Notes under the pieces: model-generated
Told to the model about the DNA's origin: nothing
What the model saw: the letters and a program-made list of their open reading frames with translations, nothing else
Database searches by the model: none
In this document: positions 1-53,860 of the stretch, piece by piece
Position numbering within the stretch: the stretch's first letter is position 1
Layout of the letters: every line of letters begins with the position of its first letter
Program-made: the position numbers and the translations under genes
NCBI GenBank assembly: GCA_964413715.1
Contig: CAYPSN010000003.1
Span: 1,750-65,749, forward strand
Source: an uncultured Candidatus Saccharibacteria bacterium
Lineage (GTDB): Bacteria; Patescibacteriota; Saccharimonadia; CAILAD01; JADZBC01
Length of the DNA stretch: 64,000 nt
Direction of reading: 5' to 3'

Positions 1-1883
1 TGGTTCCCGAAGGCAACAGCTACGTCCGCGATGCGGTCACGCTGGAGACCCTCGAGTACTGCATCCTGCTCGACGAGAACGGTCAGAAGCGCTACGTGCG
101 CGGACCGGCCGTGGTGTTCCCGAGCCCGACGGAGACGTTCAAGACGAACGACAGCCGTCAGCGGGTGTTCCGGGCCATCGAGCTCAACGAACAGTCGGGC
201 CTGTACGTGAAGGTCATCGCCGAGTACACGGAGGATGGGGAGACTCACCCCGTCGGCGAGGAGCTGTTCATCATGGGCAGCGAGCAGGCCATCTACTACC
301 CGCGGGCCGAGCACAGCATCATCACCTACGACGGGAGGCAGAAGCATCATGCCATCGCCATCCCCGCGGGTGAAGGTAGGTACGTCCTCAATCGGACCAC
401 CGGCCAGGTCAACCTGGTCAAGGGTCCGAAGATGTTCCTGCCCGACCCTCGCACGGAGGTGGTGGTCCGAAGGATCCTCGATCCGCACGACGTCCAGCTG
501 ATGTTCCCCGGCAACGATGAAGCACTGGAGGTCAATCGGCGCTACCAGCGCGAGAGCAGCACGCTGGAGGGTGGCGAGCACCTACTGAGCCGTGAGGCAG
601 TGCGGGGTTCGTCGTCCGACGTGTTGGGTTCGTTCGCTGCTGGCGACGAGGAGTTCGGGGGCGACACCATGTCGCGTGGTACCACCCACACCCCACCGCG
701 CACCATCACCCTCGACACCAAGTACGAGGGTGCGGTCGCGGTGCAGGTCTGGCCGGGCTACGCGATCCTCGTCACCAACAAGACGGGGGATCGTCGAGTC
801 GAGGTAGGGCCGAAGGTGGTCCTGATGGAGTACGACGAGACGATGATGGCGCTCGAGCTGTCCACGGGGCGGCCCAAGAGCGACCGGAACCTCCTGCGTA
901 CCGGTTACCTGAGGGTCGTCAACAACGTCGTCAGCGATCGGGTCACCGTCGAGACCAAGGACCTCGTCACTATCCAGGTGGAGCTGTCCTACCGGGTCAA
1001 CTTCGAGGGCGACTCGGCTCGCGAGCAGCAGCGCTGGTTCGACGTCGAGAACTACGTGCAGGTGCTGACGGATCACTGCCGTTCCCGGCTGCGCAACGTG
1101 GCCAAGCGGTACCAGATCCGTGAGTTCTACACGGAGATCATCGACATCATCCGCGACAGCCTCCTGGGTGTCGTGCCGGAGAGCGGCGGTTCCCGCGAGG
1201 GACTGAAGTTCGCCGAGAACGGCATGCGGGTGTACGACGTCGAGATCTTGGATGTGACGATCCAGGACCCCGAGGTGGAAGAGCTTCTCACCGATGCTCA
1301 GAGCTCGGCTCTGAGCGGAGCCATCCGCCTGTCGATGGCAGAGGAGGAGGCCGAGCGGACGAAGGCCACCGAGCAGCTCAATCGCCAGACCCTGACCGAG
1401 CAGCAGCTCACGACGGATCTGCGGGCCGAGCTGGCGTTGACGGCGACTCGTCAGCTGCTCGAGCAGCAACTCGCGGACATCGCGTCCGAACTCGACCAGC
1501 GCAAGGAGCGCGCCAAGGTGGAGGAGCATGACCTCAGGCAGGCTCGCAAGCGTTCGGATCAGGAGACCGAACTCCTCCGGGCTCGCAACGAGGCGGAGCT
1601 CGAGCGACTGCGTGTCGAGACCGAGCTCATGTTGTCCCGTCTCGACAAGGTCCAGCCGGGCCTGATCGAGGCGCTGACGTCGTTCGGTGACCGCCAGCTC
1701 GCTCAGCAGATCGTCACGGCCATCGGCCCGGCGGCTCTCGCCGCCGGTCTGACGACCGCCGACATGCTGAGCAGCGTGTTCGAAGGCACCCCGCTTGCGG
1801 GTGTCATCAGCGCGTTCGCTGAGCGGCCGCTGGCCAACGGCAACGGGTCTCGTCCGGCACTCACGGGCGCCGGACCGGACTGA
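1..1883 (+). CDS. Major vault protein (MVP)-like protein, 5'-truncated at the window edge; lies in a high-GC cassette
   Basis: The reading frame is open from nt 3 with no upstream stop, so the gene starts outside the window. GC is ~67% against a ~45% backbone. The protein is colinear with the eukaryotic MVP shoulder, cap-helix and cap-ring regions as recalled from memory. Examples are VEVGPKVVLMEYDETMMALELSTGRPK against human [27 protein letters not shown], and RWFDVENYVQVLTDHCRSRLRNVAKRYQIREFYTEIIDIIR against [41 protein letters not shown]. A long E/R/Q/L coiled coil follows, then an AIGPxxL...G C-terminus. Confidence 0.6.
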   Translation, partial: VPEGNSYVRDAVTLETLEYCILLDENGQKRYVRGPAVVFPSPTETFKTNDSRQRVFRAIELNEQSGLYVKVIAEYTEDGETHPVGEELFIMGSEQAIYYPRAEHSIITYDGRQKHHAIAIPAGEGRYVLNRTTGQVNLVKGPKMFLPDPRTEVVVRRILDPHDVQLMFPGNDEALEVNRRYQRESSTLEGGEHLLSREAVRGSSSDVLGSFAAGDEEFGGDTMSRGTTHTPPRTITLDTKYEGAVAVQVWPGYAILVTNKTGDRRVEVGPKVVLMEYDETMMALELSTGRPKSDRNLLRTGYLRVVNNVVSDRVTVETKDLVTIQVELSYRVNFEGDSAREQQRWFDVENYVQVLTDHCRSRLRNVAKRYQIREFYTEIIDIIRDSLLGVVPESGGSREGLKFAENGMRVYDVEILDVTIQDPEVEELLTDAQSSALSGAIRLSMAEEEAERTKATEQLNRQTLTEQQLTTDLRAELALTATRQLLEQQLADIASELDQRKERAKVEEHDLRQARKRSDQETELLRARNEAELERLRVETELMLSRLDKVQPGLIEALTSFGDRQLAQQIVTAIGPAALAAGLTTADMLSSVFEGTPLAGVISAFAERPLANGNGSRPALTGAGPD

Positions 1884-1910
1884 GCAGCTACCGCTGCAAC
1901 AAGGGTGACG

Positions 1911-1939
1911 ACCTACGTCATGGGGCCCAGGAGAAATCC
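1911..1939 (+). terminator. GC-rich hairpin terminator downstream of the MVP-like gene
   Basis: tggggcccagg-agaaat-cctgggcccca forms a perfect 11-bp stem just 3' of the stop. It lies at the switch from high-GC to low-GC sequence. Confidence 0.5.
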
Positions 1940-2039
1940 TGGGCCCCATTACATTTTCCGAACAATTGCCTGAACTTGGAGATACTCCTTGGTTTATCAA
2001 CTTATGCTGTATAATGTATTTGATAAGTATGGAGTAGAT

Positions 2040-2609
2040 ATGAGTATTGGATTGATAATTTTACTAGTTGTGGTCGTGCTGGCTATTTGGCTATGGGCTA
2101 CGTATAACGGTTTAGTTAAAGCCAAATTGCGCACCGATGAAGCTTTTAGCGACATTACTGTGCAGATGAAACGCCGGTTTGACCTAATTCCAAATCTAAT
2201 CGAAACGGTTAAGGGTTACGCCAAGCAAGAAAAAACCGTACTCGAGGAAGTAACTAAGGCGCGCACTGCTGCCATGAATGCTCCAGAGGGCGATGCGGCA
2301 GCAATGGCCAAGGCCGACAATGCCTTGAGCGGCACGCTGAAGAGCCTCTTTGCAGTAAGTGAAAATTACCCTGATCTAAAGAGTAACCAGAACTTCCAGC
2401 AGCTTCAGGAAGAATTGGTAGATACCGAAGATAAAATCCAAGCATCGCGCAGGTTTTATAACGGCAATGTGCGCGATCTAAACACAAAACTCCAGGTGTT
2501 CCCGACCAACATGATTGGTGGTGCGCTCGGCTTTAAGTCACGTGAGTTCTTTGATGTTGATGCTGGTGAAAAGGATAAAGTAGACAAGCCAGTCGACGTT
2601 AAGTTCTGA
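2040..2609 (+). CDS. lemA: LemA family membrane protein
   Basis: A GGAG lies 5 nt upstream of the ATG at 2040. An N-terminal TM segment (IGLIILLVVVVLAIWLW) is followed by a LemA-like soluble domain. The adjacent htpX gene is the common lemA-htpX pair. The ORF-track start at 1989 lacks an RBS. Confidence 0.7.
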   Translation: MSIGLIILLVVVVLAIWLWATYNGLVKAKLRTDEAFSDITVQMKRRFDLIPNLIETVKGYAKQEKTVLEEVTKARTAAMNAPEGDAAAMAKADNALSGTLKSLFAVSENYPDLKSNQNFQQLQEELVDTEDKIQASRRFYNGNVRDLNTKLQVFPTNMIGGALGFKSREFFDVDAGEKDKVDKPVDVKF

Positions 2610-2701
2610 CGTTTTGAGTCCATCGGTATGGAACAGGCACCTCGCGGTGCCTGTTTTGTTATCAGATTTTATTCAGGTTTCTTGGTATAATATGACTAGA
2701 T

Positions 2702-3603
2702 ATGTATAGCTCAATTACCAAGAACAAACGCAATTCCTGGCTGCTGGTGGGTTGTTTTGTTATTCTCATAACCATTCTCGGCTGGGTCTTTGCACAGGCC
2801 TTTGGCGAAAGCTGGTTTTTGTATGGTGCGTTGATTTTTTCACTTGGCTACACGTTCATTAGTTACTTTTATTCTGACAAGATGATATTGGCCGTCTCGG
2901 GTGCCAAGGAAATTAAAAAGAAAGATGCGCCCGAGCTTTATAGGCTGGTGGAGAACTTATCAATTACAGCCGGCTTGCCAATGCCGAAGGTATACATTAT
3001 TCAAGACTCAGCGCCCAATGCCTTCGCTACAGGTCGTGACCCGCAGCATGCCATAGTAGCAGTTACCACGGGGCTGATGGATAAGCTTGAAAAAGTAGAA
3101 TTAGAAGGTGTGATAGCTCACGAGCTGAGTCATGTGGGCAATTACGATATTCGGCTAATGAGCCTAGTGGTGGTGTTAGTGTCAGTGGTGGCGCTTCTGA
3201 GCGACTGGTTTTTGCGCATGACAATATGGGGTAGAGATGACGACAGTAATGGCAATAGCCAATTTCAAATGATTATGCTGGCAGCCGGTATTGCCCTTGC
3301 TATTCTGGCGCCAATTATCGGCTCAATGCTGCAGTTGGCGGTGAGTCGAAAAAGAGAATACTTGGCTGACGCCTCGGGAGCTCTGCTTACCCGCTACCCC
3401 GAAGGCTTGGCGCGGGCACTGGAAAAAATCGAAAAAGACACCGAACCACTCGAAGAAGCTAATAAAGCCACAGCCAACCTCTATATAATTAATCCGCTGC
3501 GGTCTAATATAAAAGGAGGTCGGAGTTGGTTTGCGGGGCTGTTTAGCACACACCCACCAACTGCCGAGCGAATTAAACGATTACGAGAAATGGGTACCAA
3601 GGC

Positions 3604-3607
<4 letters not shown>
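2702..3607 (+). CDS. htpX: Zinc metalloprotease HtpX (M48 family)
   Basis: HELSHV (HExxH) motif, multiple TM segments, HtpX-like N-terminus and C-terminal region; ~300 aa. Confidence 0.85.
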
Positions 3608-6337
<2,730 letters not shown>

Positions 6338-6338
6338 A

Positions 6339-6395
6339 AGAAAGAGACCCACAGAAGGAGTCGAGCGAAGGTTGCCCTTCTGGGGGTCTCTTTCT
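6339..6395. terminator. Long GC-rich hairpin serving ligA (+) and the high-GC cassette gene at 6420-6734 (-)
   Basis: aagaaagagacccacagaagg ... ccttctgggggtctctttct forms a ~20-bp stem with one mismatch and a 17-nt loop. Confidence 0.5.
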
Positions 6396-6419
6396 ATGGG
6401 TCTTGGTTCGGATCGGTGA

Positions 6420-6734
6420 CTAGTCGCCGAAGATCACCTCTCCGTTCAGCGCTGCGCGAGTCGCCTTGAAGTGGGGCCACCACGGCATGCGCTTGTCCTT
6501 TTCGAGGACACCTTCAGCCGGGTATTCGTCCCATGTGGGCGTCGTCGGGTTCCAGGTGCAGCCGACCATCAGCTTGAGGGTGCGGACTTCGCGCCCTCCT
6601 ACTGACCTCTTAACGACATCATAGACGCCGATGGTGAACACATCACGACGGGTTTCGTCTCGCCCGATAGCTGTCTCCGCTCTCACGATGAGACAGTCGC
6701 CCTTCTCAAGCCGGGCCATATCGATGGTGGCCAT
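6420..6734 (-). CDS. Hypothetical 104-aa protein (high-GC cassette, partner of the serpin-like gene)
   Basis: Start ATG (MATIDMARLEKG...) sits 5 nt after GGAAGGAGGTGG. A sigma70-like promoter (TTGACA-17-TAAAGT) lies directly upstream on the minus strand. GC-rich codons. No family recognised (W/P-rich C-terminus TWNPTTPTWDEYPAEG...MPWWPHF). Confidence 0.5.
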   Translation of the reverse strand: MATIDMARLEKGDCLIVRAETAIGRDETRRDVFTIGVYDVVKRSVGGREVRTLKLMVGCTWNPTTPTWDEYPAEGVLEKDKRMPWWPHFKATRAALNGEVIFGD

Positions 6735-6770
6735 CTGGACCACCTCCTTCCATAGGTAGGAATGTTGATA

Positions 6771-6799
6771 CTTTACAACAACATACAACATATGTCAAT
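6771..6799 (-). promoter_or_regulatory. Putative sigma70-type promoter for the 6420-6734 gene
   Basis: On the minus strand, TTGACA, a 17-nt spacer, then TAAAGT. The ATG is ~40 nt downstream and the SD is correctly placed. Confidence 0.35.
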
Positions 6800-6945
6800 G
6801 CAAGTCAGCTGGGTTTGGACTATTCCGCATAGACTATAGTCGAATCAAGGTTCTTTCCTATAGCAAGCTAAAAAGAATCAGACTCATAAGGGGGCTGAGT
6901 GAGGAACAGCCTAAATCTTCAATGTACTTGAAGACTTGGGTTGGT

Positions 6946-6977
6946 CCAGGACCGGCATCCGAAGATGCCGGTCCTGG
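6946..6977 (-). terminator. Hairpin terminator downstream of the serpin-like gene
   Basis: ccaggaccggcatc-cgaa-gatgccggtcctgg is a perfect 14-bp stem just 3' of the minus-strand stop at 6995. Confidence 0.5.
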
Positions 6978-6994
6978 CGGAACGAGCAGGAGGA

Positions 6995-7861
6995 TCAGAG
7001 GCTAGAGAGGTCGCCGGGGTCCTTCCAGTCTTCCTCGGTGATGTGCGCCTGGAAGATCGGGACGTCGACCTTGGGGTGTTCCATCCAGACGAGGAAGGGA
7101 CGGTCGACGCGGTAGATCTCCAGTCGGGGACCGGCACCGCGGAAGACCACTCCCAGAGCGGTTGCTTCCTTGGCACGTGCTCCGTGCTGGTTCATGCCGA
7201 ACTTGACCTGCTGCAGCGCTTGTTCGATGTACCACGGTCCGCTGTGCAGCGCGCCGTTCTCCGGATCGACCAGCCACTTCAGATCCGGTTTCTGATCGAG
7301 CTTGACCATCGGGATGATCACCCTGTCGATCTTCTTTCCGGCACGCATGGGCTTCTTGCGCAGCTTCTCGACGGCCTTGATCAGCTTGAACTGGCCGCCG
7401 GGATCGGGAGCCACGCAGATGAAGACCGTCTCGTCGCCCTTGGTGCTGAGCTTGATGATCGGTTCCTCGCTGCCCTCGACCCACAGGATCTCGAACCTCT
7501 TGGAGGAGAAGGCCGGGTAGCTGACGTCACCGACGTGCAGCTGCGTCTCGTCGCCGCTCTCCGGCCACTCGACGAAGATGTCGTTGATGGAGACGGTCCC
7601 GAACTTGGTGGGGTCGTTCCCCCACGAGTTGAGCCGGATGTCGAAGCCGTTCTCGGCCAGGATGGCGTTGATCTCCTCGGCCGTGCGCTTGGCCCAGCTC
7701 TTGAGGCTGGGCATGTGCTTGATGGACTCGGCGTAGCGGCCGTACCGCTTGAGCAGTCTGCGCTGCTCCCTGTTCGAGGCCTCCCAGTTGAGGGGGCCGA
7801 TGAACTCGCCGGCTGCCTCGAGGGCTCCGACGAGGGTGGCCAGACTGAAGCTGGTGGTCAC
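6995..7861 (-). CDS. Short serpin-like protein (C-terminal serpin signature; ~80-100 aa shorter than canonical serpins)
   Basis: GTG start 5 nt after AGGAGGAA. High GC. The C-terminus carries the serpin signature and hinge: KEATALGVVFRGAG (hinge-like), YRVDRPFLVWM (fits the remembered PROSITE serpin pattern), then PKVDVPIFQAHI. Earlier blocks (ETVFICVAPDPGGQ, VIIPMVKL) parallel serpin strand motifs. The upstream sequence is low-GC backbone, so the ORF cannot extend further. Confidence 0.5.
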   Translation of the reverse strand: MTTSFSLATLVGALEAAGEFIGPLNWEASNREQRRLLKRYGRYAESIKHMPSLKSWAKRTAEEINAILAENGFDIRLNSWGNDPTKFGTVSINDIFVEWPESGDETQLHVGDVSYPAFSSKRFEILWVEGSEEPIIKLSTKGDETVFICVAPDPGGQFKLIKAVEKLRKKPMRAGKKIDRVIIPMVKLDQKPDLKWLVDPENGALHSGPWYIEQALQQVKFGMNQHGARAKEATALGVVFRGAGPRLEIYRVDRPFLVWMEHPKVDVPIFQAHITEEDWKDPGDLSSL

Positions 7862-8000
7862 GATTCCTCCTGCTGTTGGATGTACGGAACAACAAAAGGG
7901 CATAAAGCCCTCTGCATAAACAATACTTTATAATAAAACAATAAAAAAGTCAATATAACCAGCTACACATTCGTCCTACTGGCTGGTAAACTAATACTAT

Positions 8001-8300
8001 ATGGCGAAAGATAAATTCAGTGTAAATGAAGTAGACAAGCTGGCTGACCTGGCTAGAATCGGCTTAAAAGATGAAGAGAGAACTGATTTAACCAAGAGCT
8101 TAACTTCGGTATTGGAGTTTGTAGATGCGCTTAATGCGGTAGATACAAAAGACGTGAAGCCGACCAGCCAAGTTACTGGGCTTCAGGACGTTCTGCGCGA
8201 AGACGAAGTTGTGCCCTGCAGCTTAAGTCGTGATGAGTTGCTCGCCAATGCACCAGCCGTGCAGGATGGCTATGTGAAGGTAAAGCGGGTGCTGCAGTAA
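8001..8300 (+). CDS. gatC: Asp-tRNA(Asn)/Glu-tRNA(Gln) amidotransferase subunit C
   Basis: 99 aa with GatC-like sequence; directly upstream of and overlapping gatA. Confidence 0.85.
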   Translation: MAKDKFSVNEVDKLADLARIGLKDEERTDLTKSLTSVLEFVDALNAVDTKDVKPTSQVTGLQDVLREDEVVPCSLSRDELLANAPAVQDGYVKVKRVLQ

Positions 8301-9751
8301 TGGGCATGCGCTACATATCTATTCACGAAGCTCACGATGCTTTGGTCTCCAAGCAGGTTTCTGCGGTCGAGCTCGTGCAATATTATCTGGAGCGCATTAA
8401 ACAGATCGACCCTAAAGTTCGAGCGTGCCTGAGCGTCTGTGGCGATGAAGCACTCGCTGCGGCAAAGGCTGTTGATAAGAAAATTGCATGCGGTGACGCA
8501 ATTGGTTTACTTGAAGGCATTCCATACACCGCCAAAGATATGTATTTGACCAAAGGTATTCGTACTACGGCGGCGAGTAAGATACTCGAAAATTTCATCC
8601 CGCCATATTCGGCAACAGTGATTGAGAAGCTTGATGCCGCTGGTGCGATTTTGATTGCCAAAGTGAATCATGATGAGTATGGCCATGGTGCAAGTACCGA
8701 AAACAGTGGCTATCATCCTACGCATAACCCATGGGATCTGGACAAAGTGCCTGGTGGATCGAGCGGTGGTTCGGCAGCGGCAGTTGCAGCTGACATGGGC
8801 ATATTCAGTCTCGGCACCGACACGGGTGGTTCGAGCCGGCAGCCGGCAGCCTTCTGTGGCGTTACTGGCTACAAGCCAACTTATGGCTTGATGAGTCGTT
8901 ATGGCGTGGTTGCTATGGGCAGTAGCTTTGACACGGTAGGAGTTATTGCTCGTAATGCGGAAGATGTGGCGGTAGTTACTGCGGCAATGAGCGGGCGAGA
9001 TAGCAAAGATGCGACCACGATTGAATCACAGTTTACTGGTGAAATTACTCACCAGTGGCAGGGCAAGACTATTGGCGTGATCGAAGAGTACGTTAAAAAT
9101 TTGGACGACGCAAATAAGCAGGTGTTTGATGCTGCAGTTGAGCAACTTGAGGCGCTTGGTGTGAAAGTAAAGAATGTTACGATCCCAACCATTGCCAATG
9201 CGTTACCGGCATATTACATTCTCATTCCTTCAGAAATTAGCTCTAATCTTAGTCGATACGACGGTATTCGCTATGGCCACCGCAGCGAACAGGCGCATGT
9301 GTTAATCGAAACGTATGAGAAAACGCGCGACGAAGGTTTTGGTGATGAAGTAAAGCGTCGTGTTCTGACGGGTACGTATACGCTTTCGGCGGGCTATTAT
9401 GATGCCTATTACCGCAAGGCTATGCAGCTTAGGACAATGTTGCGAGAGGATTTCGAAAAAGCATTCGATGGCGTGTCGGCTTTGATTGGCCCCACCACGC
9501 CTTCGCCAGCGTTCGGCTTTGGCGTTAATGAAGACCCTGTGTCGATGTACTTAGCCGACATTATGACCGTGGCGGCCAACTTGGTTGGCGTGCCCTCTGT
9601 TAGCGTACCGATGGGACTCGTTGATGGCCTGCCAGTTGGTTTGCAAATCATGACAGCGCAGAATAAAGATGCCGATGCTTTGGGCCTTGCGGCGGCTTTT
9701 CAAGCCGCAACTGAGTGGCATAACCTTAGAGAAAAGGAGTTGGCGATATGA
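8300..9751 (+). CDS. gatA: Glutamyl-tRNA(Gln) amidotransferase subunit A (amidase signature family)
   Basis: Amidase signature GGSSGGSAAAVA; 483 aa; gatCAB context. Confidence 0.9.
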   Translation: MGMRYISIHEAHDALVSKQVSAVELVQYYLERIKQIDPKVRACLSVCGDEALAAAKAVDKKIACGDAIGLLEGIPYTAKDMYLTKGIRTTAASKILENFIPPYSATVIEKLDAAGAILIAKVNHDEYGHGASTENSGYHPTHNPWDLDKVPGGSSGGSAAAVAADMGIFSLGTDTGGSSRQPAAFCGVTGYKPTYGLMSRYGVVAMGSSFDTVGVIARNAEDVAVVTAAMSGRDSKDATTIESQFTGEITHQWQGKTIGVIEEYVKNLDDANKQVFDAAVEQLEALGVKVKNVTIPTIANALPAYYILIPSEISSNLSRYDGIRYGHRSEQAHVLIETYEKTRDEGFGDEVKRRVLTGTYTLSAGYYDAYYRKAMQLRTMLREDFEKAFDGVSALIGPTTPSPAFGFGVNEDPVSMYLADIMTVAANLVGVPSVSVPMGLVDGLPVGLQIMTAQNKDADALGLAAAFQAATEWHNLREKELAI

Positions 9752-10203
9752 GTCAATCAGCCGTTATTGCCCTGATCGTTTTGAGTGGCTTGGCGTATGT
9801 GCTTATTCGACAGTCAGCCAAAACCAGCCTTAAGAAAAAACCATATCGTGGCATGAAAGTCGAAAGTCATGGCGAGGTTTATGATTTAGCGCGTGTTGCG
9901 CCAAAGTGGCACGAGATTCAAGCAATGCTCAAAAACGGCCCGAGCGGTCTGCGCAGCGCTTTGTTCGAAGCCGATAAATTGCTTGACTATGTTATGCAAG
10001 CACGGGGCTTTCAAGGTGAAACTATGGGAGAGCGGCTGAAAAATAATGGTAAAAGGCTCAGTAATCTGAACGACGTTTGGGCAGCGCATAAACTGCGCAA
10101 TCAGTTTGCACATAGTTTGGATCACGACATTGTGCCAGCACAGGTTCAGAAGGCAGTGCAAGACTTAGGTAAAGCAATTGTGAGTTTGGGGGTGCGGATA
10201 TGA
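9748..10203 (+). CDS. Hypothetical membrane-anchored protein inserted between gatA and gatB
   Basis: 151 aa with an N-terminal TM helix (VIALIVLSGLAYVLI). Its start overlaps the gatA stop and its stop overlaps the gatB start, both as ATGA. Confidence 0.5.
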   Translation: MSQSAVIALIVLSGLAYVLIRQSAKTSLKKKPYRGMKVESHGEVYDLARVAPKWHEIQAMLKNGPSGLRSALFEADKLLDYVMQARGFQGETMGERLKNNGKRLSNLNDVWAAHKLRNQFAHSLDHDIVPAQVQKAVQDLGKAIVSLGVRI

Positions 10204-11615
10204 GCGATTATAAGCCAACCATCGGCATTGAAATCCACGTGCAGCTGGCTACCAAATCAAAGATGTTCTGTGGCTGTGACAACGATTCACGAACTGCCGA
10301 GCCAAATACGAATATTTGCCCTGTCTGCATGGCCTACCCGGGTACGTTACCAGTTGTAAATAAGCGCGCTGTCGAACTAGCCATAAAGCTTGGCGAAGGT
10401 CTGAACGCCGAGATCGCTCGACATACGAGTTTTGATAGGAAAAACTACTTTTACCCCGACTCGCCCAAAGGCTATCAAATTACCCAGATGGACGAGCCGA
10501 TTATTGGCCCAGGCTACGTGGAAATCTTGGTTGGCGGCGAATTTAAGCGCATTGGCATTCATCACGCCCATTTAGAAGAAGATGCCGGTAAGTCGACACA
10601 TCCGGATGGTGCCAACTATTCATTGGTCGACTTTAATCGCGCTGGCACGCCGTTGATCGAAATTGTTTCGGAGCCAGACATGCATACGCCCGAAGAGGCC
10701 CGACGATACTTGCAGGAAGTCTACAATATTGCCTCGGCAATTGGTGTAACGCATGGTGATTTGGAGCATGGTAATTTTAAGTTCGACCTGAACGTGTCGG
10801 TTAGCAAAACTGACAAACTCGGTACGCGTACAGAGCTAAAAAACCTAAACTCATTCAGGAACGCCGAACGCGCGCTTTCGTACGAGATACAGCGCCAAAT
10901 TGATGTGCTGGAAAGTGGCGAAGTAGTGGAGCAAGAAACTCGAGGCTATAACGATGCAAAAAACATTACGTTTTCGCAGCGTGGCAAAGAAATGGCGCAT
11001 GATTATCGTTACTTCCCAGAGCCAGATTTGCCACCACTCGTAATTACAGACGCCATGATATCTGAAGCGAAGCAAGAGATTGTAACCCTGCCAATTGTGG
11101 TGCGCAAAGAGCTGGTTGATGCAGGTGTTGGTGTCGACGAACAAGATGTTCTGATTGGCCAACCAAGCACCCTTGCGTTATTTCAAGAAGCTCGCGAAAT
11201 CGTCAGAGACAAGGCGTTGACTTCGAAGCTCGTAAATTGGCTAGTGGGTGACTACCAGGCATTGCTTGGGAGCGGCGTAGCTTCAAAACTTAAGCCCCAG
11301 GCGCTCGCAGAACTCGTAAACTTAGTAGACATGGGCAAGATAAGTTCTAAAATAGCCAAGGATATATTTGCCGACGTTGTGGCTGGCGCAATGCCGCGAG
11401 AGGTTATTGCTGCCAAGGGCATTAGTCAGGTTTCGGACACTAACGAGCTGACGGCGATTGTGAAAAAAGTTATAGAAGAGAACCCTACCGTTGTGGAACA
11501 ATATAAGGCGGGTGAAGAAAAGGTGCTCGGCTTCTTGGTTGGTCAGATTATGAAGGCCACGCAGGGCCAGGCAAATCCTGGGCTTGTTAACCAGATTCTA
11601 CGCGAGCAGCTGTAA
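10200..11615 (+). CDS. gatB: Asp-tRNA(Asn)/Glu-tRNA(Gln) amidotransferase subunit B
   Basis: N-terminal IGIEIHVQL...KMFCGC motif and GatB/YqeY C-terminal domain; 471 aa. Confidence 0.9.
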   Translation: MSDYKPTIGIEIHVQLATKSKMFCGCDNDSRTAEPNTNICPVCMAYPGTLPVVNKRAVELAIKLGEGLNAEIARHTSFDRKNYFYPDSPKGYQITQMDEPIIGPGYVEILVGGEFKRIGIHHAHLEEDAGKSTHPDGANYSLVDFNRAGTPLIEIVSEPDMHTPEEARRYLQEVYNIASAIGVTHGDLEHGNFKFDLNVSVSKTDKLGTRTELKNLNSFRNAERALSYEIQRQIDVLESGEVVEQETRGYNDAKNITFSQRGKEMAHDYRYFPEPDLPPLVITDAMISEAKQEIVTLPIVVRKELVDAGVGVDEQDVLIGQPSTLALFQEAREIVRDKALTSKLVNWLVGDYQALLGSGVASKLKPQALAELVNLVDMGKISSKIAKDIFADVVAGAMPREVIAAKGISQVSDTNELTAIVKKVIEENPTVVEQYKAGEEKVLGFLVGQIMKATQGQANPGLVNQILREQL

Positions 11616-11671
11616 ACGTTTGGCAAGGCGACGCAGGAGTTCTATAATATTAGAGTAAAAAGAGAAGCAAT

Positions 11672-11932
11672 ATGGATACAGCATTCTTAGTGTGGGCAGT
11701 AGTCTTATCGATTGCGACGTTGGTGTTGCTCGTGTTGGCTATTATTGCCGCGGTGTTTAGTGTAAAAATACTCAAATCCGTACGTCATATCGCTGAAAAA
11801 GCACAGGAAAGTGCCGACGCGGTGACAGAAGTAGTCGAAGGTGTACGTGACAGCGTAGTGAGTCCTAGCATCGTAGCGGCGTTCATTAGCAATTACATTA
11901 ATAAACAGGCAAGTAAACGGAGGAAAAAATGA
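11672..11932 (+). CDS. Small membrane protein (hypothetical)
   Basis: 86 aa with a single TM helix; low-GC backbone; start of a three-gene small-protein cluster. Confidence 0.4.
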   Translation: MDTAFLVWAVVLSIATLVLLVLAIIAAVFSVKILKSVRHIAEKAQESADAVTEVVEGVRDSVVSPSIVAAFISNYINKQASKRRKK

Positions 11933-12656: not shown

Positions 12657-12693
12657 CTTTCCGACATTAATATTCTTTGGATCCAATAACGAT

Positions 12694-47115: not shown

Positions 47116-47151
47116 ATGCTGTTTATTGTGGATTATTACTGGTCAAATGAT

Positions 47152-47187
47152 AACGACCCTAGTACATTTGCATGCACTAGGGTCGTT
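47152..47187 (-). terminator. Hairpin terminator of the 47206-47394 gene (high-GC cassette)
   Basis: aacgaccctagt-acatttgcatgc-actagggtcgtt is a perfect 12-bp stem. Confidence 0.45.
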
Positions 47188-47205
47188 GGGGGGGGCAGGG
47201 GTAGC

Positions 47206-47394
47206 TCAGTCGGGTGGCAGGGGAGTGCTGATCTCCCTGAACTCGGGGCTACCGCTGGACGGGGTGGCGCGAAGTTCGCGTGCTGGCACGAGGCCTTCTG
47301 CGGCGTGTTCTTCGGTTCGGCTGAACTGAGCGCCCACGTAGGCAGCCATCTGCGCTGCCCGCGCCTTGGCGGTCTTGTCACCAGTACTCTCCAT
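47206..47394 (-). CDS. Hypothetical 62-aa protein (high-GC cassette, upstream partner of tdk)
   Basis: GAGGAG lies 5 nt before the ATG. GC-rich. Sequence is MESTGDKTAKARAAQMAAYVGAQFSRTEEHAAEGLVPARELRATPSSGSPEFREISTPLPPD. No family recognised. Confidence 0.4.
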   Translation of the reverse strand: MESTGDKTAKARAAQMAAYVGAQFSRTEEHAAEGLVPARELRATPSSGSPEFREISTPLPPD

Positions 47395-47456
47395 GTTTGC
47401 TCCTCGCTCTATAGGACCTCAGTTATCCTATACTAGCTTGCAGTCTTTGCCAAGTC

Positions 47457-48005
47457 CTAACGAGCAGAGACGAAGCACTGCCTGCAGCGCGCTTCATAGC
47501 TGTAGGTGCCGTCTTCTGGCAGGATGGAGGGGAGCCCTCCGGTAACTTCTTTGCCGTCCTTGAGAACCTGACTGAAGCGTGCCTCGTAGCTCTTGCACAC
47601 ATCGCAAACAGCGATAAGGCACTGCACGCTTGTTGGACCAAGCTCCATCAGGGCGACGGTGCTTTCGATCAGCCTGCCTCGATAGTCCATATCGAGTCCG
47701 ACAGCATGAATGACTAGCCCCTTGGCCAAGAGCGAGTTCAACGCCCCCAGGTCGTCTTGACCGAACATGTGAACTTCATCGATGCCAATGACGTCGTAAT
47801 TGGCGAGCCAGTCGATGTCGAGTCTGTCGACCTTCGTCGTTTGGATGCTGGCACCTGCACGAGAACTGACTTGGGTTTCTCTGTCGTGAAGCTTGGGCTG
47901 CACAACGACCCACCGCATGTCGCTATGAGCAAGTGGCGAAAAGATTTTGACAAGCTCGAGGGATTTCCCCGACTTCATGGGTCCCATCGTAAGGTGTAGC
48001 GGCAT
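47457..48005 (-). CDS. tdk: Thymidine kinase (TK1/type II family)
   Basis: P-loop GPMKSGKS, VIGIDEVHMF, GLDMDYRG, and a C-terminal zinc ribbon (CDVC...CRQC) parallel the human TK1 motifs. ~68% GC, in a foreign-looking cassette. Confidence 0.8.
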   Translation of the reverse strand: MPLHLTMGPMKSGKSLELVKIFSPLAHSDMRWVVVQPKLHDRETQVSSRAGASIQTTKVDRLDIDWLANYDVIGIDEVHMFGQDDLGALNSLLAKGLVIHAVGLDMDYRGRLIESTVALMELGPTSVQCLIAVCDVCKSYEARFSQVLKDGKEVTGGLPSILPEDGTYSYEARCRQCFVSAR

Positions 48006-48245: not shown

Positions 48246-50354
48246 ATGGCTCGCGAGTATTCATTAGAAAACACACGAAACATCGGTATTATTGCTCACA
48301 TTGATGCTGGTAAAACGACCGTTACAGAAGGTATCTTGTACCGTACTGGACGTGTCCATAAGATTGGTGAAGTGCACGAAGGTGCTGCAACCATGGACTG
48401 GATGGAGCAAGAGCAAGAGCGTGGTATTACGATTACCTCGGCAGCCACAACTTGTTTCTGGAATGATAAGCGCATTAACATTATTGACACTCCAGGACAC
48501 ATCGACTTTACCGTAGAGGTAGAGCGATCGTTGCGTGTTCTTGACGGTGCTGTTACGGTTTTCGACGGCAAAATGGGCGTAGAGCCACAGAGTGAAACGG
48601 TGTGGCGTCAGGCCGACAAGTACGGCGTGCCTCGTATTTGCTTCATCAATAAGATCAATCAAACCGGCGGTGATTTTTACAAATCCCTCGAATCAATCCA
48701 CGAGCGTCTCAGCAAGCGGGCGTACCCAATTCACTTGCCAATTGGTTTTGAGCAAGACATTAATGGCTTAGTCGACTTGGTTGAGATGAAGGCCTACGAG
48801 TACAAAGATTACACCGACAAAGAGCTAAAAGAGATTGAGATTCCGGAAGATATGAAAGAAAAGGTGGCTCACTACCGCCAGCACTTGATTGAAGCGGCCG
48901 TTGAGAGTGATGACTCGTTGATGGAAAAATACCTCGAAGGCCAAGAACTTACGACTGAAGAAGTTAAGACTGCGATTCGTAAGTCAGTTCTTTCCGGTCA
49001 GTTCTATGCCGTTTCCGGCGGTGATGGTCGTGGCGTGATTGTAGAAAAGCTGCTTGACGCCGTAGTAGACTACTTGCCAAACCCACTCGACATTACCGCG
49101 CCACTTGGTAAAGATGTTAAAACTGGCGAAGACAAAGTCCTAGAAGTTTCTGATGAAGCACCGTTTGCTGGCTTGGCCTTTAAGATCGCAACCGACCCAT
49201 TTGTCGGTAAGTTGGCTTTCTTCCGAGTGTATTCAGGTGTACTAAAGAGTGGTAGCTATATTCTCAATGCCTCAACGGGCGAAAAAGAGCGCGTCGGTCG
49301 AATCGTACGTATGCACGCCAACAATCGTGAAGAAGTAAACGAAGTGTATGCTGGTGAAATCGCTGCTGCAGTAGGACTTAAGAATACTATTACGGGCCAC
49401 ACCATTTGTGACCCTGCACACCCCGTGATGCTCGAGTCAATCACCTTCCCAGAGCCAGTTATTTCGATCGCAATTGAGCCAAAAACCAAAGCCGACCAAG
49501 AAAAGATGGGTATTGCCTTGTCTCGTTTGGCCGAAGAAGATCCGACCTTCCGTGTGCACTCTGACGAAGATAGTGGTCAGACCATCATTGATGGTATGGG
49601 TGAGTTGCACCTCGATGTGATTGTGGACCGCATGAAACGTGAATTTAAGGTAGAAGCCAACGTAGGGCGTCCTCAGGTTGCCTACCGCGAGACTATTCGC
49701 AAGTCTACTCAGATCGAAGGTAAGTTTGTGCGCCAATCTGGTGGTCGTGGTCAGTATGGTCATGTTTGGCTAGAACTTAGCCCGCTCGTTCACACCGATG
49801 ACGATGAAGAGCGCAAGACATTCGAGTTTGAAAACGCCATTGTGGGTGGTGTGGTGCCCAAGGAATACATCAAGCCAGTTGAGGAAGGCGTTCGCGAAGC
49901 CATGGGTAATGGTGTTCTAGCCGGCTATCCAGTAGTCGATATTCATGCCAAGCTTTATGATGGTAGCTATCACGATGTAGACTCTTCGGAACTTGCTTTC
50001 AAGATTGCCGGCTCGATGGCACTTCAGGCAGGCGTACGCCAGGCTGACCCAGTTATTCTAGAGCCAGTCATGCGAGTTGAGATTACGACGCCAGAAGACT
50101 TCATGGGTGATGTGATAGGTGATATCAACGCCAAGCGTGGTCGAGTAGAGAAGATGGAAGATCGCAGCGGCGCTAAGATCATTAGCTCTTTCGTGCCGCT
50201 TTCTGGGATGTTTGGCTATGCTACAAGCTTGCGCTCGATGACACAAGGACGTGCTAGTTATGCTATGGAGTTTGACCATTACGCTGAAGTGCCACGTAAC
50301 GTTGCCGATGAGCTTATTGGCAAGCGCCAGGCAGCCGTCGAAGAAGGTCGCTAA
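48246..50354 (+). CDS. fusA: Elongation factor G
   Basis: [10 protein letters not shown]-domain and full EF-G architecture. The ATG at 48246 has AAGGAAG ~8 nt upstream, whereas the track start at 48207 has no RBS. Confidence 0.95.
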
Positions 50355-50377
50355 GAGAAGGTCCTAAGGCTAAAACT

Positions 50378-50410
50378 AAAAAACAACCCCATTGACAGGG
50401 GTTGTTTTTT
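50378..50410 (+). terminator. Rho-independent terminator after fusA
   Basis: aaaaaacaacccc-attgaca-ggggttgtttttt. Confidence 0.6.
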
Positions 50411-50449
50411 AGTTTATTGTAGTTATTGTTCGTGCAAGTAGCTTCAGAG

Positions 50450-50930
50450 TATGCGCTAGTTACCTAAGCAAGTTAGTTGAGACTTGTAGCTGTAATGAAA
50501 GCAGGCGTGCTGCAGCACACCACCTGTTGTGCAGAATCATCTCATTGTACTCGCCGCCATCAGAGTACTCCTCGCAGAGGCAGCTTCAGGAGAGCGCCCC
50601 GGGTTGAAGAGAGACTGAAGTTACGTTGCAAAAACTACGTATTCAGCGAAAGCTGAGTGCCCGGATGCGCATCTGGGCTGTGTGAGTAAAGGTGGGTCTA
50701 AGGATGATCACTTGGAGACCCTTAAAAACGCACAACGTAGTTGGTGGGGCGTCATGATCACGACGCCTTGACATCACCCCAGACAAGAAGCGTTCCACCA
50801 CGCGATGGGGTCCGGTAATGATGTCCGCTCGGCCCGAAAGCTGTGTAGTCCTGCCTGAAGGACGCCGGTACACAAGCTTTCGGGCCGCCCGCCCCAGGCA
50901 ACCCCTGGGGCATTTGTCATTTCCGGGCAC
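50450..50930. other. GC-elevated noncoding block between fusA and tuf; unassigned structured-RNA candidate
   Basis: No ORF with an RBS is present. Long near-perfect hairpins include cggcccgaaagctgtgt...acacaagctttcgggccg (17 bp), ggcgtcatgatcacgacgcc and gggtct...agaccc. Confidence 0.25.
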
Positions 50931-51052
50931 CTACCTCTTTACATTTCGGCAATTTTTACCTATAATCGAAAAGTCTAATGCCTAGGCATATTTTTTGTGA
51001 CCTAAGCACAGCGCTTTTATAAAAAGATTAACCAAGCATTCAAGGAGAATAT

Positions 51053-52237
51053 ATGGCAGAAACATTTGATCGCAGTAAGCCCCATGTAAATGTCGGTACC
51101 ATGGGTCACGTAGACCACGGTAAAACCACACTTACAGCTGCAATTACGCACGTATTGGCTAAAAAGTTACCAAGCGCGGTAAACAAGCCAATTAACTATG
51201 ATGAAATCGACAAGGCTCCAGAAGAGCGCGAACGCGGTATCACCATCGCTACTTCACACCAAGAATACGAAAGTGAAAAGCGTCACTACGCTCACGTTGA
51301 TATGCCAGGTCACGCTGACTACGTGAAGAACATGATTACCGGTGCTGCTCAGGTTGACGGCGCTATCTTGGTAGTATCTGCTGCAGACGGCCCAATGCCA
51401 CAGACTCGTGAGCACGTACTGCTTGCTCGTCAGGTTGGTGTGCCTTACATCCTTGTTTACATGAACAAGATGGACATGGCTGATCCAGAACTAGCCGAAT
51501 TGGTAGAAATTGAAATTCGCGAACTTCTTGCCAAAAACGGCTACGACGAAAATGCGCCTATCATTAAGGGTTCTGCCCTTAAGGCTCTCGAGGGCGATGC
51601 AGCAGCTGAAGACTCTATTATGGAGCTCGTAAAAGCTATGGACGAAAGCGTTCCAGAGCCAAAGCGTGAAATCGACAAGCCATTCTTGATGCCAATCGAA
51701 GACGTATTCTCAATTAAAGGTCGTGGTACTGTTGCTACTGGTCGTATCGAGCAGGGTATCGTTAAAGTAGGTGAAGAAGTAGAGATCGTTGGTCTTCACG
51801 ACACTAAGAAAACAACCGTAACTGGTGTAGAAATGTTCAAGAAATTGCTCGACGAAGGTCGTGCTGGCGACAACGTAGGTTTGCTCTTACGCGGTATTGA
51901 ACGAACTGACATCGAGCGTGGTCAAGTACTTGCTAAGCCAGGCTCAATCACACCTCACACTGAATTTGATGCAGAAGTTTACGTATTGAAGAAAGAAGAA
52001 GGTGGTCGACACACTCCATTCTTCAAAGGCTACAAGCCACAGTTCTACATCCGTACAACCGACGTAACTGGCGAAGTTACTCTACCAGACGGCGTAGAAA
52101 TGGTAATGCCTGGTGATAACATTCAGATGAAGGTTAAACTCATCGCTCCAATTGCTATGGAAGATGGTTTGCGATTCGCAATCCGTGAAGGTGGCCGAAC
52201 TGTTGGCGCAGGTGTTGTAACCAAGATCAACAAATAA
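51053..52237 (+). CDS. tuf: Elongation factor Tu
   Basis: Unambiguous ([22 protein letters not shown]). Confidence 0.95.
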
Positions 52238-52264
52238 ACATCAAGGATCGAACGGAACCTTAAC

Positions 52265-52585
52265 ATGCCAGAACAAGCCAACAAACAACGCATACGAATC
52301 AGACTAAAAGCCTACGACAGCAAGATTATCGATCAATCTGCTAAGCAGATTCTCGATACTGCTGTACGTACCGGTGCTCAAGTAGTGGGCCCAGTGCCGC
52401 TTCCTACGGACAAAAACAAGTTTACGGTGCTATCGAGCCCCCACGTTTTTAAAGACGCTCGAGAGCAGTTTGAAATGCGCACACACAAGCGTTTGATTGA
52501 TATCACAGAGCCAACTCCTAAGACGATAGATTCTTTGATGAATCTTAATCTTCCAGCTGGTGTTGATATCGAAATCAAAATGTAA
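52265..52585 (+). CDS. rpsJ: 30S ribosomal protein S10
   Basis: Unambiguous. Confidence 0.95.
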
Positions 52586-52617
52586 TTTGCCTTGGCATCT
52601 AATAGGTAAGTCCTAAC

Positions 52618-52647
52618 TAAAACACCCCCTGAATAAAGGGGGTGTTT
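52618..52647 (+). terminator. Terminator after rpsJ
   Basis: aaaacaccccct-gaataa-agggggtgtttt. Confidence 0.55.
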
Positions 52648-52670
52648 TAGTTATGCAAAAAGGCGAGTGA

Positions 52671-52740
52671 GGCGGACCAAAGTCATTAAATGGTTAATTA
52701 CTTTGGTCCGCCCGCCTGACCCCCCGGTGAAGGGGTCAGG
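52671..52740 (-). terminator. Tandem hairpins downstream of the 52736-53050 cassette gene
   Basis: Two perfect stems: ggcggaccaaagt...actttggtccgcc (13 bp) and cctgacccc-ccggtgaa-ggggtcagg (9 bp). The second overlaps the stop codon. Confidence 0.45.
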
Positions 52741-53050
52741 CGGTATGGGCGTAAGGCTTCCCTGCAGGGTAGGGAGGCTCGAACACAGGGCGTTGATCGG
52801 AGATCTCCTGCATGCGTGCTCGTACCTTGAGCCGAAGCTCTTCGAGGCTCTCGCGATCCTGCGACACCCAGGTGAGAAGGAAAGACCTTCTCTCTCCTTC
52901 GAGCCGTTCTGAGACATGCACCGTAGGGCTGATCCCTTCAAGTGCTCGCTCGACCCACTCTGCGTTGTAAGAGGGCCGGTTTGTGAGCGAGAGAACAAGC
53001 CCCGTGCTCGTGCGATGGAGACTGAACCCCAGCGATTGAAACTCAACCAT
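52736..53050 (-). CDS. Hypothetical 104-aa protein (high-GC cassette); possibly ABM/Dabb-type ferredoxin-like fold
   Basis: AAAGGAGG lies 7 nt before the ATG (MVEFQSLGF...). GC-rich. SFLLTWVSQDRESLEELRLKV weakly resembles the ABM-family motif. The ORF-track N-terminal extension lacks an RBS. Confidence 0.45.
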   Translation of the reverse strand: MVEFQSLGFSLHRTSTGLVLSLTNRPSYNAEWVERALEGISPTVHVSERLEGERRSFLLTWVSQDRESLEELRLKVRARMQEISDQRPVFEPPYPAGKPYAHTA

Positions 53051-53399
53051 GACCGAACCTCCTTTCACAGGTAGATTGTGGCTCGGTAGTCTGAAGACAA
53101 GATCTACAGGCTGCCGAGCACAAGACTGTGAAATTTGCAAAGTACTTAAGGTCATGCCTTAATGTGCACAAATCATACTATAGGCAGCCAAATCTGTCAA
53201 TAACAAAAACTTCACAAAAACACTAGACAAAACAGCAAACTTGTATTATTATGTAAACCTACGTTTGGTTCGCCCAAATTGCACCTTATAGCACCTTGAG
53301 CCTTCGGCTCTTGGAATCAGTCCCCGAATCATTGTTGGGAATTTATTCTAAGAGCCGAAATGTCGAAAATATAAAATGTGAAAATAAAATCGACAAAAG

Positions 53400-53860
53400 G
53401 CTCATAAAACTGTCTTGGCTCCTTGGCCTCCTTCGGGACGCCACTGGAGCAGTAGTAGTGCAAAGGTAGAGCGCCGCGCTTCCGTGGCTTCGGCCAGGAC
53501 GCCACCGCGTCTCCTCGCACTGCTACAGCGCTCCACAGGAGCCAAGACACTCTTCGGCGCAATGACTGCGAACGTGCCCTCACGGGCTTCTCGCCTTTGC
53601 GTCGCCAGCGGGGCGGGATCCGCCGCCTGCTCCGCTCGGACTACGAGCGCTGAACCTGTGACTGGGCTGTTGCCCTGGCGCGGAGTATAGCCTCACGAGA
53701 GGTTGGCACACACGTCGACCTCTCTCGCTCGTGTCAACCAGCTTTGGTTGACCATGAGCGCGACGCCGGGATCCGCCGCCTGGTGTCGCCGCCGGTGCGG
53801 GGCGGCCTCCGGGCCGCCCCGCACCTCGCCCTGACAATACGTCAGGGTTTCTTTTATTTT
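53400..53860. other. High-GC noncoding block with tetraloop hairpins and an internal 16-nt direct repeat
   Basis: No credible ORF. cgggatccgccgcctg occurs twice (~53610 and ~53770). Hairpins include the palindrome gcggggcggcc-tcc-ggccgccccgc, ccctgac-aatac-gtcaggg, gtcaacca-gctt-tggttgac, and several cc-TTCG-gg loops. Confidence 0.2.

Follow-up and report, generated by a model that had tools for sequence, protein, structure and literature searches.

GC-rich islets with foreign codon usage between the core genes of a Saccharimonadia chromosome

A compositional mosaic in a Saccharimonadia genome

We analyzed a 64-kb stretch of DNA from an uncultured Candidatus Saccharibacteria bacterium (contig CAYPSN010000003.1 of assembly GCA_964413715.1), called the window below, in which short GC-rich islands lie in the gaps between core genes. 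The mean GC of the window is 49.4%, with a backbone of ~0.48-0.49 and islands of 0.56-0.65. A 150-nt scan recovered abrupt steps where a preliminary description of the sequence had placed them; the contrast reported there stands but its values do not, since it put the backbone at 0.45 and the islands at 0.65-0.70. The scan called the following blocks.

1-1995, GC 0.644
6337-6733, GC 0.59
6889-7925, GC 0.61
12720-13327, GC 0.60
34837-35379, GC 0.61
47128-47630, GC 0.58 (thymidine kinase gene itself, 0.56)
52659-53040, GC 0.58
53384-53906, GC 0.61

The GC-rich patches are of two classes, accessory coding units and GC-rich candidate genes for structured noncoding RNAs. The first class comprises a homolog of the major vault protein (MVP), a mini-serpin, a thymidine kinase (TK), and four short ORFans, each with its own promoter, Shine-Dalgarno (SD) sequence, and hairpin. 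The open reading frames (ORFs) and associated signals of the coding islands are listed here with the GC content of their third codon positions (GC3).

1-1883, plus strand, 3' 626 codons of the MVP homolog (GC 0.65, GC3 0.86); the gene starts ~730 bp to the left of the window
1920-1949, plus strand, GC-rich 13-bp terminator hairpin of the MVP gene
6339-6395, minus strand, terminator of o104a, a long hairpin with a T-run
6420-6734, minus strand, o104a, ORFan of 104 aa (GC3 0.74, SD GGAAGGAGGTG)
6946-6977, minus strand, perfect 14-bp hairpin downstream of the serpin-like gene
6995-7903, minus strand, compact serpin-like gene, 288-302 aa by the start chosen (GC3 0.86)
12751-12782, minus strand, hairpin downstream of o165
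12800-13297, minus strand, o165, ORFan of 165 aa (GC3 0.86; a longer 193-aa ORF at 12800-13381 has GC3 0.81)
34665-34751, plus strand, tRNA-Leu(tag), the backbone landmark left of island 4, with its own terminator at 34755-34784
34824-35306, plus strand, o117 transcription unit, promoter TTGACA-17-TAATAT at 34824-34852, SD GGGGAGG
34903-35256, plus strand, o117, ORF of 117 aa (GC3 0.85), hairpin at 35280-35306
47206-47394, minus strand, o62, ORF of 62 aa (GC3 0.71), hairpin at 47152-47187
47457-48005, minus strand, TK, 182 aa (GC3 0.66), between the rpsG terminator and the fusA promoter
52671-52743, minus strand, two tandem hairpins terminating o104b, just downstream of rpsJ
52736-53050, minus strand, o104b, ORF of 104 aa (GC3 0.64, SD AAAGGAGGT)

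The contrast between islands and backbone is sharpest at third codon positions. Mean GC3 of 53 backbone genes is 0.465 (standard deviation, 0.045; maximum, 0.54), and the eight island ORFs, at 0.64-0.86, stand above it with z values of 4.0-8.8. Each composition step falls either at the start codon or SD or, at the opposite end, at the terminator hairpin, and the island promoters are AT-rich. We located SD sites and GC-rich hairpins, perfect or near-perfect, for the island units and verified them by eye, and no backbone gene is interrupted by any island; in both respects the preliminary description was correct.

Island genes use ATC (100%), AAG (98%), and GAG (83%), prefer GTC to GTG and GCC to GCG, and use CTC and CTG about equally. 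This pattern is common to the GC-rich genes of contig L086 and resembles that of L091, a contig of 70% GC (labels of this kind denote sequences used in the comparisons). Native tuf, fusA, and ribosomal protein genes favor ATT, GAA, GTT/GTA, GGT, and CGT. Since the island codons are opposite to this native optimum, selection for expression in the organism that carries them is ruled out as the cause of the high GC3. The compositional mosaic is real, and the codon usage of the islands is foreign.

The backbone, which had been called similar to the candidate phyla radiation (CPR), is that of a member of the Saccharimonadia by its RpsG. Among GTDB contigs with one genome per species, the closest RpsG loci are those of Candidatus Saccharibacteria/Saccharimonadia metagenome-assembled genomes (MAGs), six of them at 90-92% identity and ~15 at 70-75%; a metagenome scan with GatA found relatives at no more than 57% identity. 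The genes present are those of a typical CPR core (LemA, HtpX, LigA, GatCAB, DnaE, L19, RNase HII, NusA, a ClpB/ClpC-type AAA+ chaperone, RadA, PBP1, TyrRS, RecG, RsmD, tRNA-Leu, Tig, ClpP, RpoBC, S12, S7, EF-G, EF-Tu, S10, and L3, among others).

The assembly of the window is correct, and the DNA belongs to a Saccharimonadia (Saccharibacteria, CPR) chromosome. Exact-protein look-ups found the same island junctions, at 97.6-100% nucleotide identity, in ~10 independent assemblies from ENA, JGI, NCBI, and Logan, made by different projects with different assemblers (SPAdes-type and MEGAHIT); junctions identical or nearly so across independent assemblies mean that the mosaic is not an assembly chimera. 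The order rpsG-o62-TK-fusA recurs in ERZ28655916 (a 140-kb scaffold), ERZ27309394 (MEGAHIT), ERZ28656156, and Logan SRR6747781, and the order MVP-LemA-HtpX-LigA-o104a-serpin-GatCAB-...-o165-DnaE in ENA assemblies, a JGI contig of 197,652 bp, and Logan contigs. Recurring junctions are also present in an NCBI contig of 140,079 bp and in one strain variant of 98% average nucleotide identity (ANI). All of the island proteins looked up in the protein collection are there, in tiny clusters of one to six members (the MVP of the window, partial at its edge, was left out of this look-up).

The MVP island

The gene of island 1 is a bacterial MVP homolog of ~869-877 aa (complete in L171-L173; full-length forms overall have 854-877 aa). 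It scores above the Pfam cut-offs for MVP_shoulder (96.7 bits, cut-off 25), Vault_3 (38.3 bits, cut-off 28.8), and Band_7 (36.9 bits), and the homolog search returned 6404 matches; the protein may form a vault-like shell. Bacterial and phage MVP homologs have been described before (bioRxiv 10.1101/872010; 10.1101/2023.11.10.566534). The island gene is like them in its MVP shoulder and vault repeat domains and its length of ~870 aa, but unlike them it belongs to a GC-rich island of a Saccharibacteria chromosome; a text search of 10.1101/872010 gave no mention of Saccharibacteria or Patescibacteria. Homologs of 37-44% identity are carried by 11 large IMG/VR viral contigs (L183-L193, 29-470 kb), and the plasmid search gave no match. 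The MVP region of viral contig L187 has 52% GC versus 36% in its flanks, whereas the MVP genes of L185 and L192 are fully low in GC, like the flanks. A homolog at 59% identity lies on a contig of uniformly 62% GC.

Sequence comparison shows the MVP unit to be mobile; at least this unit has moved recently between unrelated contexts. Its neighbors differ among the window genome, L085, and L086, while its GC3 is 0.83-0.88 in all three. Between the window genome and L086 (a contig of GCA_964416735.1), a unit of 2783 bp is 94.7% identical and the flanks are unrelated. The unit begins at the -10 box, ~100 bp ahead of the start codon, and ends just beyond the hairpin, 64 bp after the stop codon, the right limit of homology being window position 1947. 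The promoter and 5' untranslated region within the shared unit are AT-rich, so that the last mover was a unit already naturalized. Strains L171 and L172 differ at only 2 sites in MVP (comparison with L086 as outgroup).

Contig L086 (10.8 kb) shows the same type of mosaic, only denser. GC3 is 0.86-0.93 in 6 of its 11 called genes (MVP, a 443-aa protein, adh_short, and three small ORFs), and these alternate with genes of GC3 0.57-0.60.

Two observations concern tRNAs close to MVP. In L171, two tRNA-like sequences, recognized by eye only, appear to lie directly upstream of MVP at 920-1100, ~1 kb to the left of the window. In L087 (37% GC, CPR-like), ARAGORN places MVP between tRNA-Gly/tRNA-Leu(taa) and tRNA-Leu(tag) (9659-9824 and 12637-12718). 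This proximity could be a coincidence, or tRNA clusters could be favored landing sites.

The ligA/gatC island: a compact serpin-like protein and o104a

The product of 6995-7903 is a compact serpin-like protein, ~90-100 residues shorter than canonical serpins. Its Pfam Serpin score of 26.2 bits is just under the cut-off of 27. Its AlphaFold model has a predicted local distance difference test score (pLDDT) of 86, with a low-confidence or disordered loop (residues 231-247) at the site expected for the reactive-center loop, and in a Foldseek search of the PDB all of the top matches were serpins (E ~1e-10; template modeling score [TMq], 0.5-0.6). The family has 15 members. A homolog at 61-63% identity, in a Candidatus Saccharimonas MAG, is an island of GC3 0.70 in another context, and the next-closest proteins (~49% identity) are encoded on contigs of uniformly high GC (70% in L091, 73.5% in L194) with GC3 0.90-0.92. 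In L091 the serpin-like gene neighbors an HTH_31+MLTR_LBD (MmyB-like) regulator, which presumably points to Actinomycetota. No relative of the serpin-like protein was found on viral contigs and none on plasmids. The other gene of this gap, o104a, is the representative of a two-member cluster and has no match in Pfam, PHROG, or NCBIfam.

Islands that keep their position

The recurrence of islands in related genomes, raised in the preliminary description as a check, takes two forms: TK, o165, and o104b have counterparts at the same site, and MVP and the serpin-like gene occur in other contexts. By position, TK, o165, o104b, the 53400-53860 block, and an RNA in the fusA-tuf spacer (see below) are as old as the genus, across which they are homologous. 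The seven blocks of the preliminary description form a mosaic but not a set of equivalent units.

The TK matches the Pfam family TK (PF00265) over residues 3-178 of 182 with 79.2 bits (gathering threshold, 20.6) and also PHROG 592; NCBIfam equivalog cut-offs are not reached. Orthologs of 79-82% identity occupy the same site in L005-L007 and are absent from L008-L010, and phage TKs are at most 38% identical to it. Across relatives, we compared the rpsG/fusA and rpsJ/rplC gaps, and both vary in content. The rpsG-fusA spacer measures 121 bp in L009 and 168 bp in L010. In L008, L011, L012, and L023 it contains unrelated genes (1.8-4.2 kb), and L024 has a HAD-like gene there. When the sequences are compared, the site of insertion falls precisely between the terminator of rpsG and the conserved promoter of fusA. 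Between rpsJ and rplC, the length of the spacer varies from 0.75 to 3.1 kb. Here o104b is 63% identical in L005, and L006 and L007 carry another ORF body behind the same conserved SD/promoter flank. The tandem hairpins of o104b are ~85% conserved across the genus (L005-L010), with compensatory changes, and are better kept than the ORF.

The o165 protein has only three relatives among 1.84 billion representatives, one of them (59% identity, GC3 0.73) at the same DUF5665/dnaE locus in L008. Its structure model has a pLDDT of 54, and the phage search gave no match. The near-consensus promoter of o117 directly follows the tRNA-Leu terminator; its protein is a singleton cluster, without a match in Pfam, PHROGs, NCBIfam, viral contigs, or phages.

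Strains L171 and L172 were compared over window positions 1-18300 plus 2 kb to the left. Their divergence is 0-0.07% over 12 kb, from the left end to gatA, and 3-11% over the next 8 kb, from gatB on, with a sharp recombination boundary near window position 10200. Homologous recombination is active in this population. The most divergent segment is o165 (11.4% versus 3-6% in its flanks), which makes an allelic replacement at the same locus plausible.

Age of the islands

At 4-fold sites, backbone genes have an identity of 0.22-0.56 (mostly 0.30-0.44) to genus relatives, or ~1.2 substitutions per site, close to saturation. A gene acquired by the genus ancestor with a GC of ~0.9 at these sites (GC4) would be expected to stand now at ~0.6-0.65. 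The observed GC4 is 0.60-0.64 for TK in three lineages, 0.57-0.60 for o104b, 0.79-0.84 for MVP, and 0.84 for the serpin-like gene. TK and o104b thus stand where amelioration from a high-GC donor would put them, which makes amelioration quantitatively plausible. The GC4 values of MVP and the serpin-like gene are too high for residence as long as the age of the genus, which fits their changing contexts. On this scale, TK, o104b, and o62 (GC3 0.64-0.71) would have been acquired in the genus ancestor, and MVP, the serpin-like gene, o165, and o117 (GC3 ~0.86) would be recent or recently replaced.

Noncoding GC-rich blocks

The preliminary description had recognized one GC-rich block without genes, and this holds for the interval 53406-53845. 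Its list of seven blocks was right as far as it went, but it missed three further GC-rich blocks, all noncoding (17082-17806, ~18500-19240, and ~50640-50960). Each of these three has a TTGACA-17-TAT(T/A)(A/G)T promoter and a hairpin terminator. The candidate RNA genes are as follows, with z values of the minimum free energy (MFE) of folding.

17100-17821, minus strand, candidate RNA gene of ~680 nt between dnaE and rplS, promoter 17821-17793, terminator 17107-17130 (MFE z = -5.2)
18519-19260, minus strand, candidate RNA gene of ~700 nt between rplS and rnhB, promoter 19260-19232, terminator 18519-18551 (MFE z = -6.9)
50392-50911, plus strand, candidate RNA of ~500 nt in the fusA-tuf spacer, promoter 50392-50420, terminator 50891-50911
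Counterparts of the fusA-tuf RNA: L005, 16554-17271; L006, 13794-14511; L008, 14421-15148; L010, 12769-13530
53406-53845, plus strand, structured noncoding element (block 7), perfect 14-bp hairpin at 53794-53825

Block 7 folds into a chain of consecutive long helices (MFE z = -12.9). Its sole ORF has a GC of 0.74 at second codon positions and no match to Pfam or any family. Within the block, a 16-nt direct repeat, CGGGATCCGCCGCCTG, occurs in exact copies at 53614 and 53767. The block is partly conserved in L006, L007, and L010, and it is most likely a structured RNA (a candidate RNA gene) and not a decayed cassette. The L007 equivalent has poly-G/poly-C runs and Ns, which suggests that the element is hard to assemble.

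Promoter and body of the fusA-tuf RNA are kept in the four genus members listed, in which RNAalifold finds 111 pairs, 34 of them with compensatory changes (MFE z = -5.0); the RNA is followed by another conserved promoter, that of tuf. The two units flanking rplS have a TTGACA-17-TATTAT promoter with a TG and end in a hairpin plus T-run. The four noncoding blocks have no similarity to one another. With Rfam 15, only tRNA-Leu reached the gathering threshold, and there was nothing credible at E < 1 in 17000-19400 or 50300-54000. ARAGORN and Rfam matched none of the blocks to transfer-messenger RNA, RNase P, or signal recognition particle RNA, and these identities were rejected. A structured RNA is expected to be GC-richer than a genome of 48% GC, so part of the mosaic would simply be structured RNA. 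Four GC-rich candidate RNAs of 450-700 nt without an Rfam match, one of them covarying, are perhaps the more original lead of this analysis.

Boundaries of the islands and comparison with known systems

The absence of an integrase, transposase, flanking repeat, or att-like duplication, as first described, was borne out. None of the ORFs scanned across the window has a Pfam domain of an integrase, transposase, or recombinase, direct or inverted repeats at the flanks do not exceed in length those of shuffled controls, and neither a partial duplicate of tRNA-Leu nor a tRNA-derived att duplication was found near it. The search for a junction motif, also suggested there, yielded no k-mer common to the junctions. 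The hairpins have perfect GC-rich stems of unrelated sequence; inspected by eye, none has the attC cores RYYYAAC ... GTTRRRY, and only that of o62 begins with AAC and ends with GTT. Backbone operons end in hairpins too. With no recombinase, attC-like site, shared motif, or duplication, readings of the islands as integrons, att-site insertions, or motif-directed insertions were rejected.

Like integron cassettes, the island units are mostly single genes ending in a palindrome. However, the window has no IntI, attI, or attC cores, and the units are dispersed over 54 kb on both strands, each with its own promoter-like site and SD. The islands share with tRNA-linked genomic islands their atypical GC (GC3 z values given above) and, for two units, a position downstream of tRNAs (o117 after tRNA-Leu and, apparently, MVP in L171). 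They differ in lacking an integrase, a duplicated tRNA 3' end, and direct repeats, and in measuring 0.5-2.8 kb as opposed to 10-200 kb.

The closest parallel is with hot spots and islets of horizontal gene transfer (HGT). A 2017 study by Oliveira and coworkers is said to have found many hot spots without mobile-element genes, attributed to homologous recombination in transformable bacteria. The rpsG/fusA and rpsJ/rplC intervals behave similarly, with contents that vary among relatives and are empty in some, no integrases or repeats, atypical composition, and recombination in the population; MVP and the serpin-like gene also appear in unrelated contexts elsewhere, unlike the syntenic TK, o165, and o104b. 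What sets the window apart is the very small size of the units (mostly one gene with its own promoter and terminator), their location inside the near-universal str/S10 gene order, a host that is a CPR epibiont with a genome of ~1 Mb, and an unusually large compositional contrast (GC3 +0.4). Amelioration of horizontally acquired genes, reportedly set out by Lawrence and Ochman in 1997, has its counterpart in the gradient of island GC3 from 0.86 to 0.64, with older syntenic units nearer the backbone. The phenomenon is thus already known, namely HGT islets at hot spots flanked by core genes, with amelioration, here in a CPR host.

Origin of the islands

The explanation that we favor, with a probability of roughly 0.65, is recurrent lateral acquisition from high-GC donors, with varied amelioration and spread by homologous recombination, for which no cassette machinery is needed. 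It was one of the readings offered at the outset and is now the best supported, by the foreign codon usage, the serpin relatives on 70-74% GC contigs, the contexts of MVP, and the graded GC3. Saccharibacteria rely on scavenged nucleic acids. High-GC DNA would be taken up and fixed by illegitimate recombination in terminator-to-promoter spacers, perhaps the only sites that a streamlined genome tolerates. The imported units would gain native-type AT-rich promoters and spread among related Saccharibacteria through homologous recombination in the conserved core genes flanking them. Their third-position GC would decay slowly toward the backbone value, and differences in GC3 would then reflect age. 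The donors may plausibly be the Actinomycetota on which Saccharibacteria live; an epibiotic life on Actinobacteria is documented for Saccharibacteria (PMC8406219). What we infer in this scheme is the direction of transfer, the host as donor, and the route by uptake and recombination.

Several points weigh against recurrent acquisition. The contigs with high-GC relatives carry no taxonomy, and the nearest relatives of MVP and the serpin-like gene are themselves in Saccharibacteria/CPR genomes, so that the proximate source would be the Saccharibacteria gene pool, with an ultimate high-GC origin suggested by composition. Random capture of fragments would predict looser promoter-to-terminator limits than those of the MVP unit, and in several unrelated low-GC contigs (L087 and L187), though not in all (L185 and L192), the flanks of MVP are poorer in GC than the gene. 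Syntenic o165 keeps a GC4 of 0.77/0.70 (n = 53 sites), somewhat above what simple amelioration from the genus ancestor would leave, and seems less ameliorated than its apparent age predicts. Finally, the bias in two-fold codon families exceeds that in L091 despite its 70% GC, and GCC is favored over GCG; selection or a particular class of donor could account for this bias.

A stricter version holds that the islands are direct imports of single genes, fixed repeatedly, from the high-GC actinobacterial hosts into their DNA-scavenging epibionts. They would be given native promoters and circulate among Saccharibacteria, without a recombinase, as minimal promoter-to-terminator units inserting between terminators and promoters, even within the str/S10 ribosomal cluster. 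We regard it as possible but tentative, and distinctly less probable than recurrent acquisition from high-GC donors in general. It would amount to a compact "you are what you eat" gene flow, in which the composition of the islets could reveal the hosts of uncultured CPR bacteria and link uncultured Saccharibacteria to them.

Next in standing is endogenous maintenance, according to which the islands are long-standing accessory genes whose GC3 is held high by GC-biased gene conversion (gBGC) at hot spots or by gene-specific codon or mRNA selection. TK, o165, o104b, and the noncoding block keep their position in the genus and remain GC-elevated in every lineage, the islands occupy recombination-prone variable gaps in a population that is a recombination mosaic, and both the codon bias beyond that of 70% GC genomes and the elevated MVP of L087 and L187 would fit. 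However, we know of no documented gBGC effect in bacteria that comes near a GC3 of 0.86 versus 0.47, and the island codons are the reverse of the native translational optimum. The MVP genes of L185 and L192 indicate a family without an intrinsic GC requirement, serpin homologs match the composition of their genomes on the 70-74% GC contigs, and the graded GC3 fits the amelioration arithmetic of TK. We consider endogenous maintenance unlikely, though least so for the old, syntenic units.

A dedicated capture mechanism, integron-like or new, would use the hairpins as recombination sites with a recombinase encoded outside the window. In its favor, all of the units close with a strong hairpin, in many cases a perfect one, and the -10 box and hairpin set tight limits to the MVP unit that L086 has in common with the window genome. 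Clean insertions are repeated without damage to core genes, and the o104b locus keeps its promoter/SD and hairpin flanks while the ORF body varies among relatives. Yet the window encodes no integrase, transposase, or other recombinase, no target is duplicated, the hairpins share no sequence or core and resemble the intrinsic terminators that also close backbone operons, and the junctions have no k-mer motif. The units are dispersed in either orientation with promoters of their own, unlike integron arrays, and limits as tight as those of MVP could be expected from deletion bias in a streamlined genome. The novel cassette-capture mechanism first proposed has no positive evidence (no recombinase, attC-like site, or motif), the gaps are ordinary terminator-to-promoter spacers, and we judge such a mechanism improbable, more so than endogenous maintenance.

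Even less probable is that the islands are remnants of phages or plasmids, that is, decayed prophage morons or integrated plasmid genes. Phage morons are single genes with their own promoter and terminator, and the island units resemble them; the MVP homologs on the 11 IMG/VR contigs and the match of TK to a PHROG family and to phage TKs would also agree with such a source. However, PHROG has no match for six of the eight island proteins, relatives on viral contigs are lacking for the serpin-like protein and o117, the phage searches found no match to o165 or o117, and MVP and the serpin-like protein have no plasmid match. No phage genes adjoin the islands, and the 38% ceiling on identity to phage TKs is low. 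A chimeric assembly or engineered sequence, also among the original proposals, has nothing in its favor beyond the abrupt composition steps themselves and is effectively refuted by the junctions shared at 97.6-100% identity among the ~10 assemblies, including the 98% ANI variant, and by orthologous islands in genus relatives.

For CPR biology, the window is a clean, reproducibly assembled case of an epibiont genome of ~1 Mb that goes on importing genes on a substantial scale. The sites taken by the imports are precise and safe, even within the most conserved bacterial gene cluster. Their predicted functions (a vault-like shell protein, a protease-inhibitor fold, and nucleoside salvage) hint at a use at the interface between epibiont and host. 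For genome scanning, abrupt GC islands without mobility genes need not mean a new mechanism or a misassembly.

Other genes of the window

Two small genes (87 and 117 aa) lie ahead of rplC at 53909-54528 on the plus strand; they have no family match and are kept across the genus. The 87-aa protein is also found in the distant Saccharibacteria L026 and L030 (35-37% identity), which makes it a lineage-specific addition to the S10 operon. Inside the gatA-gatB operon, an ORF of 151 aa (9748-10203, plus strand) with backbone composition and without a Pfam match overlaps each of its neighbors by 4 nt.

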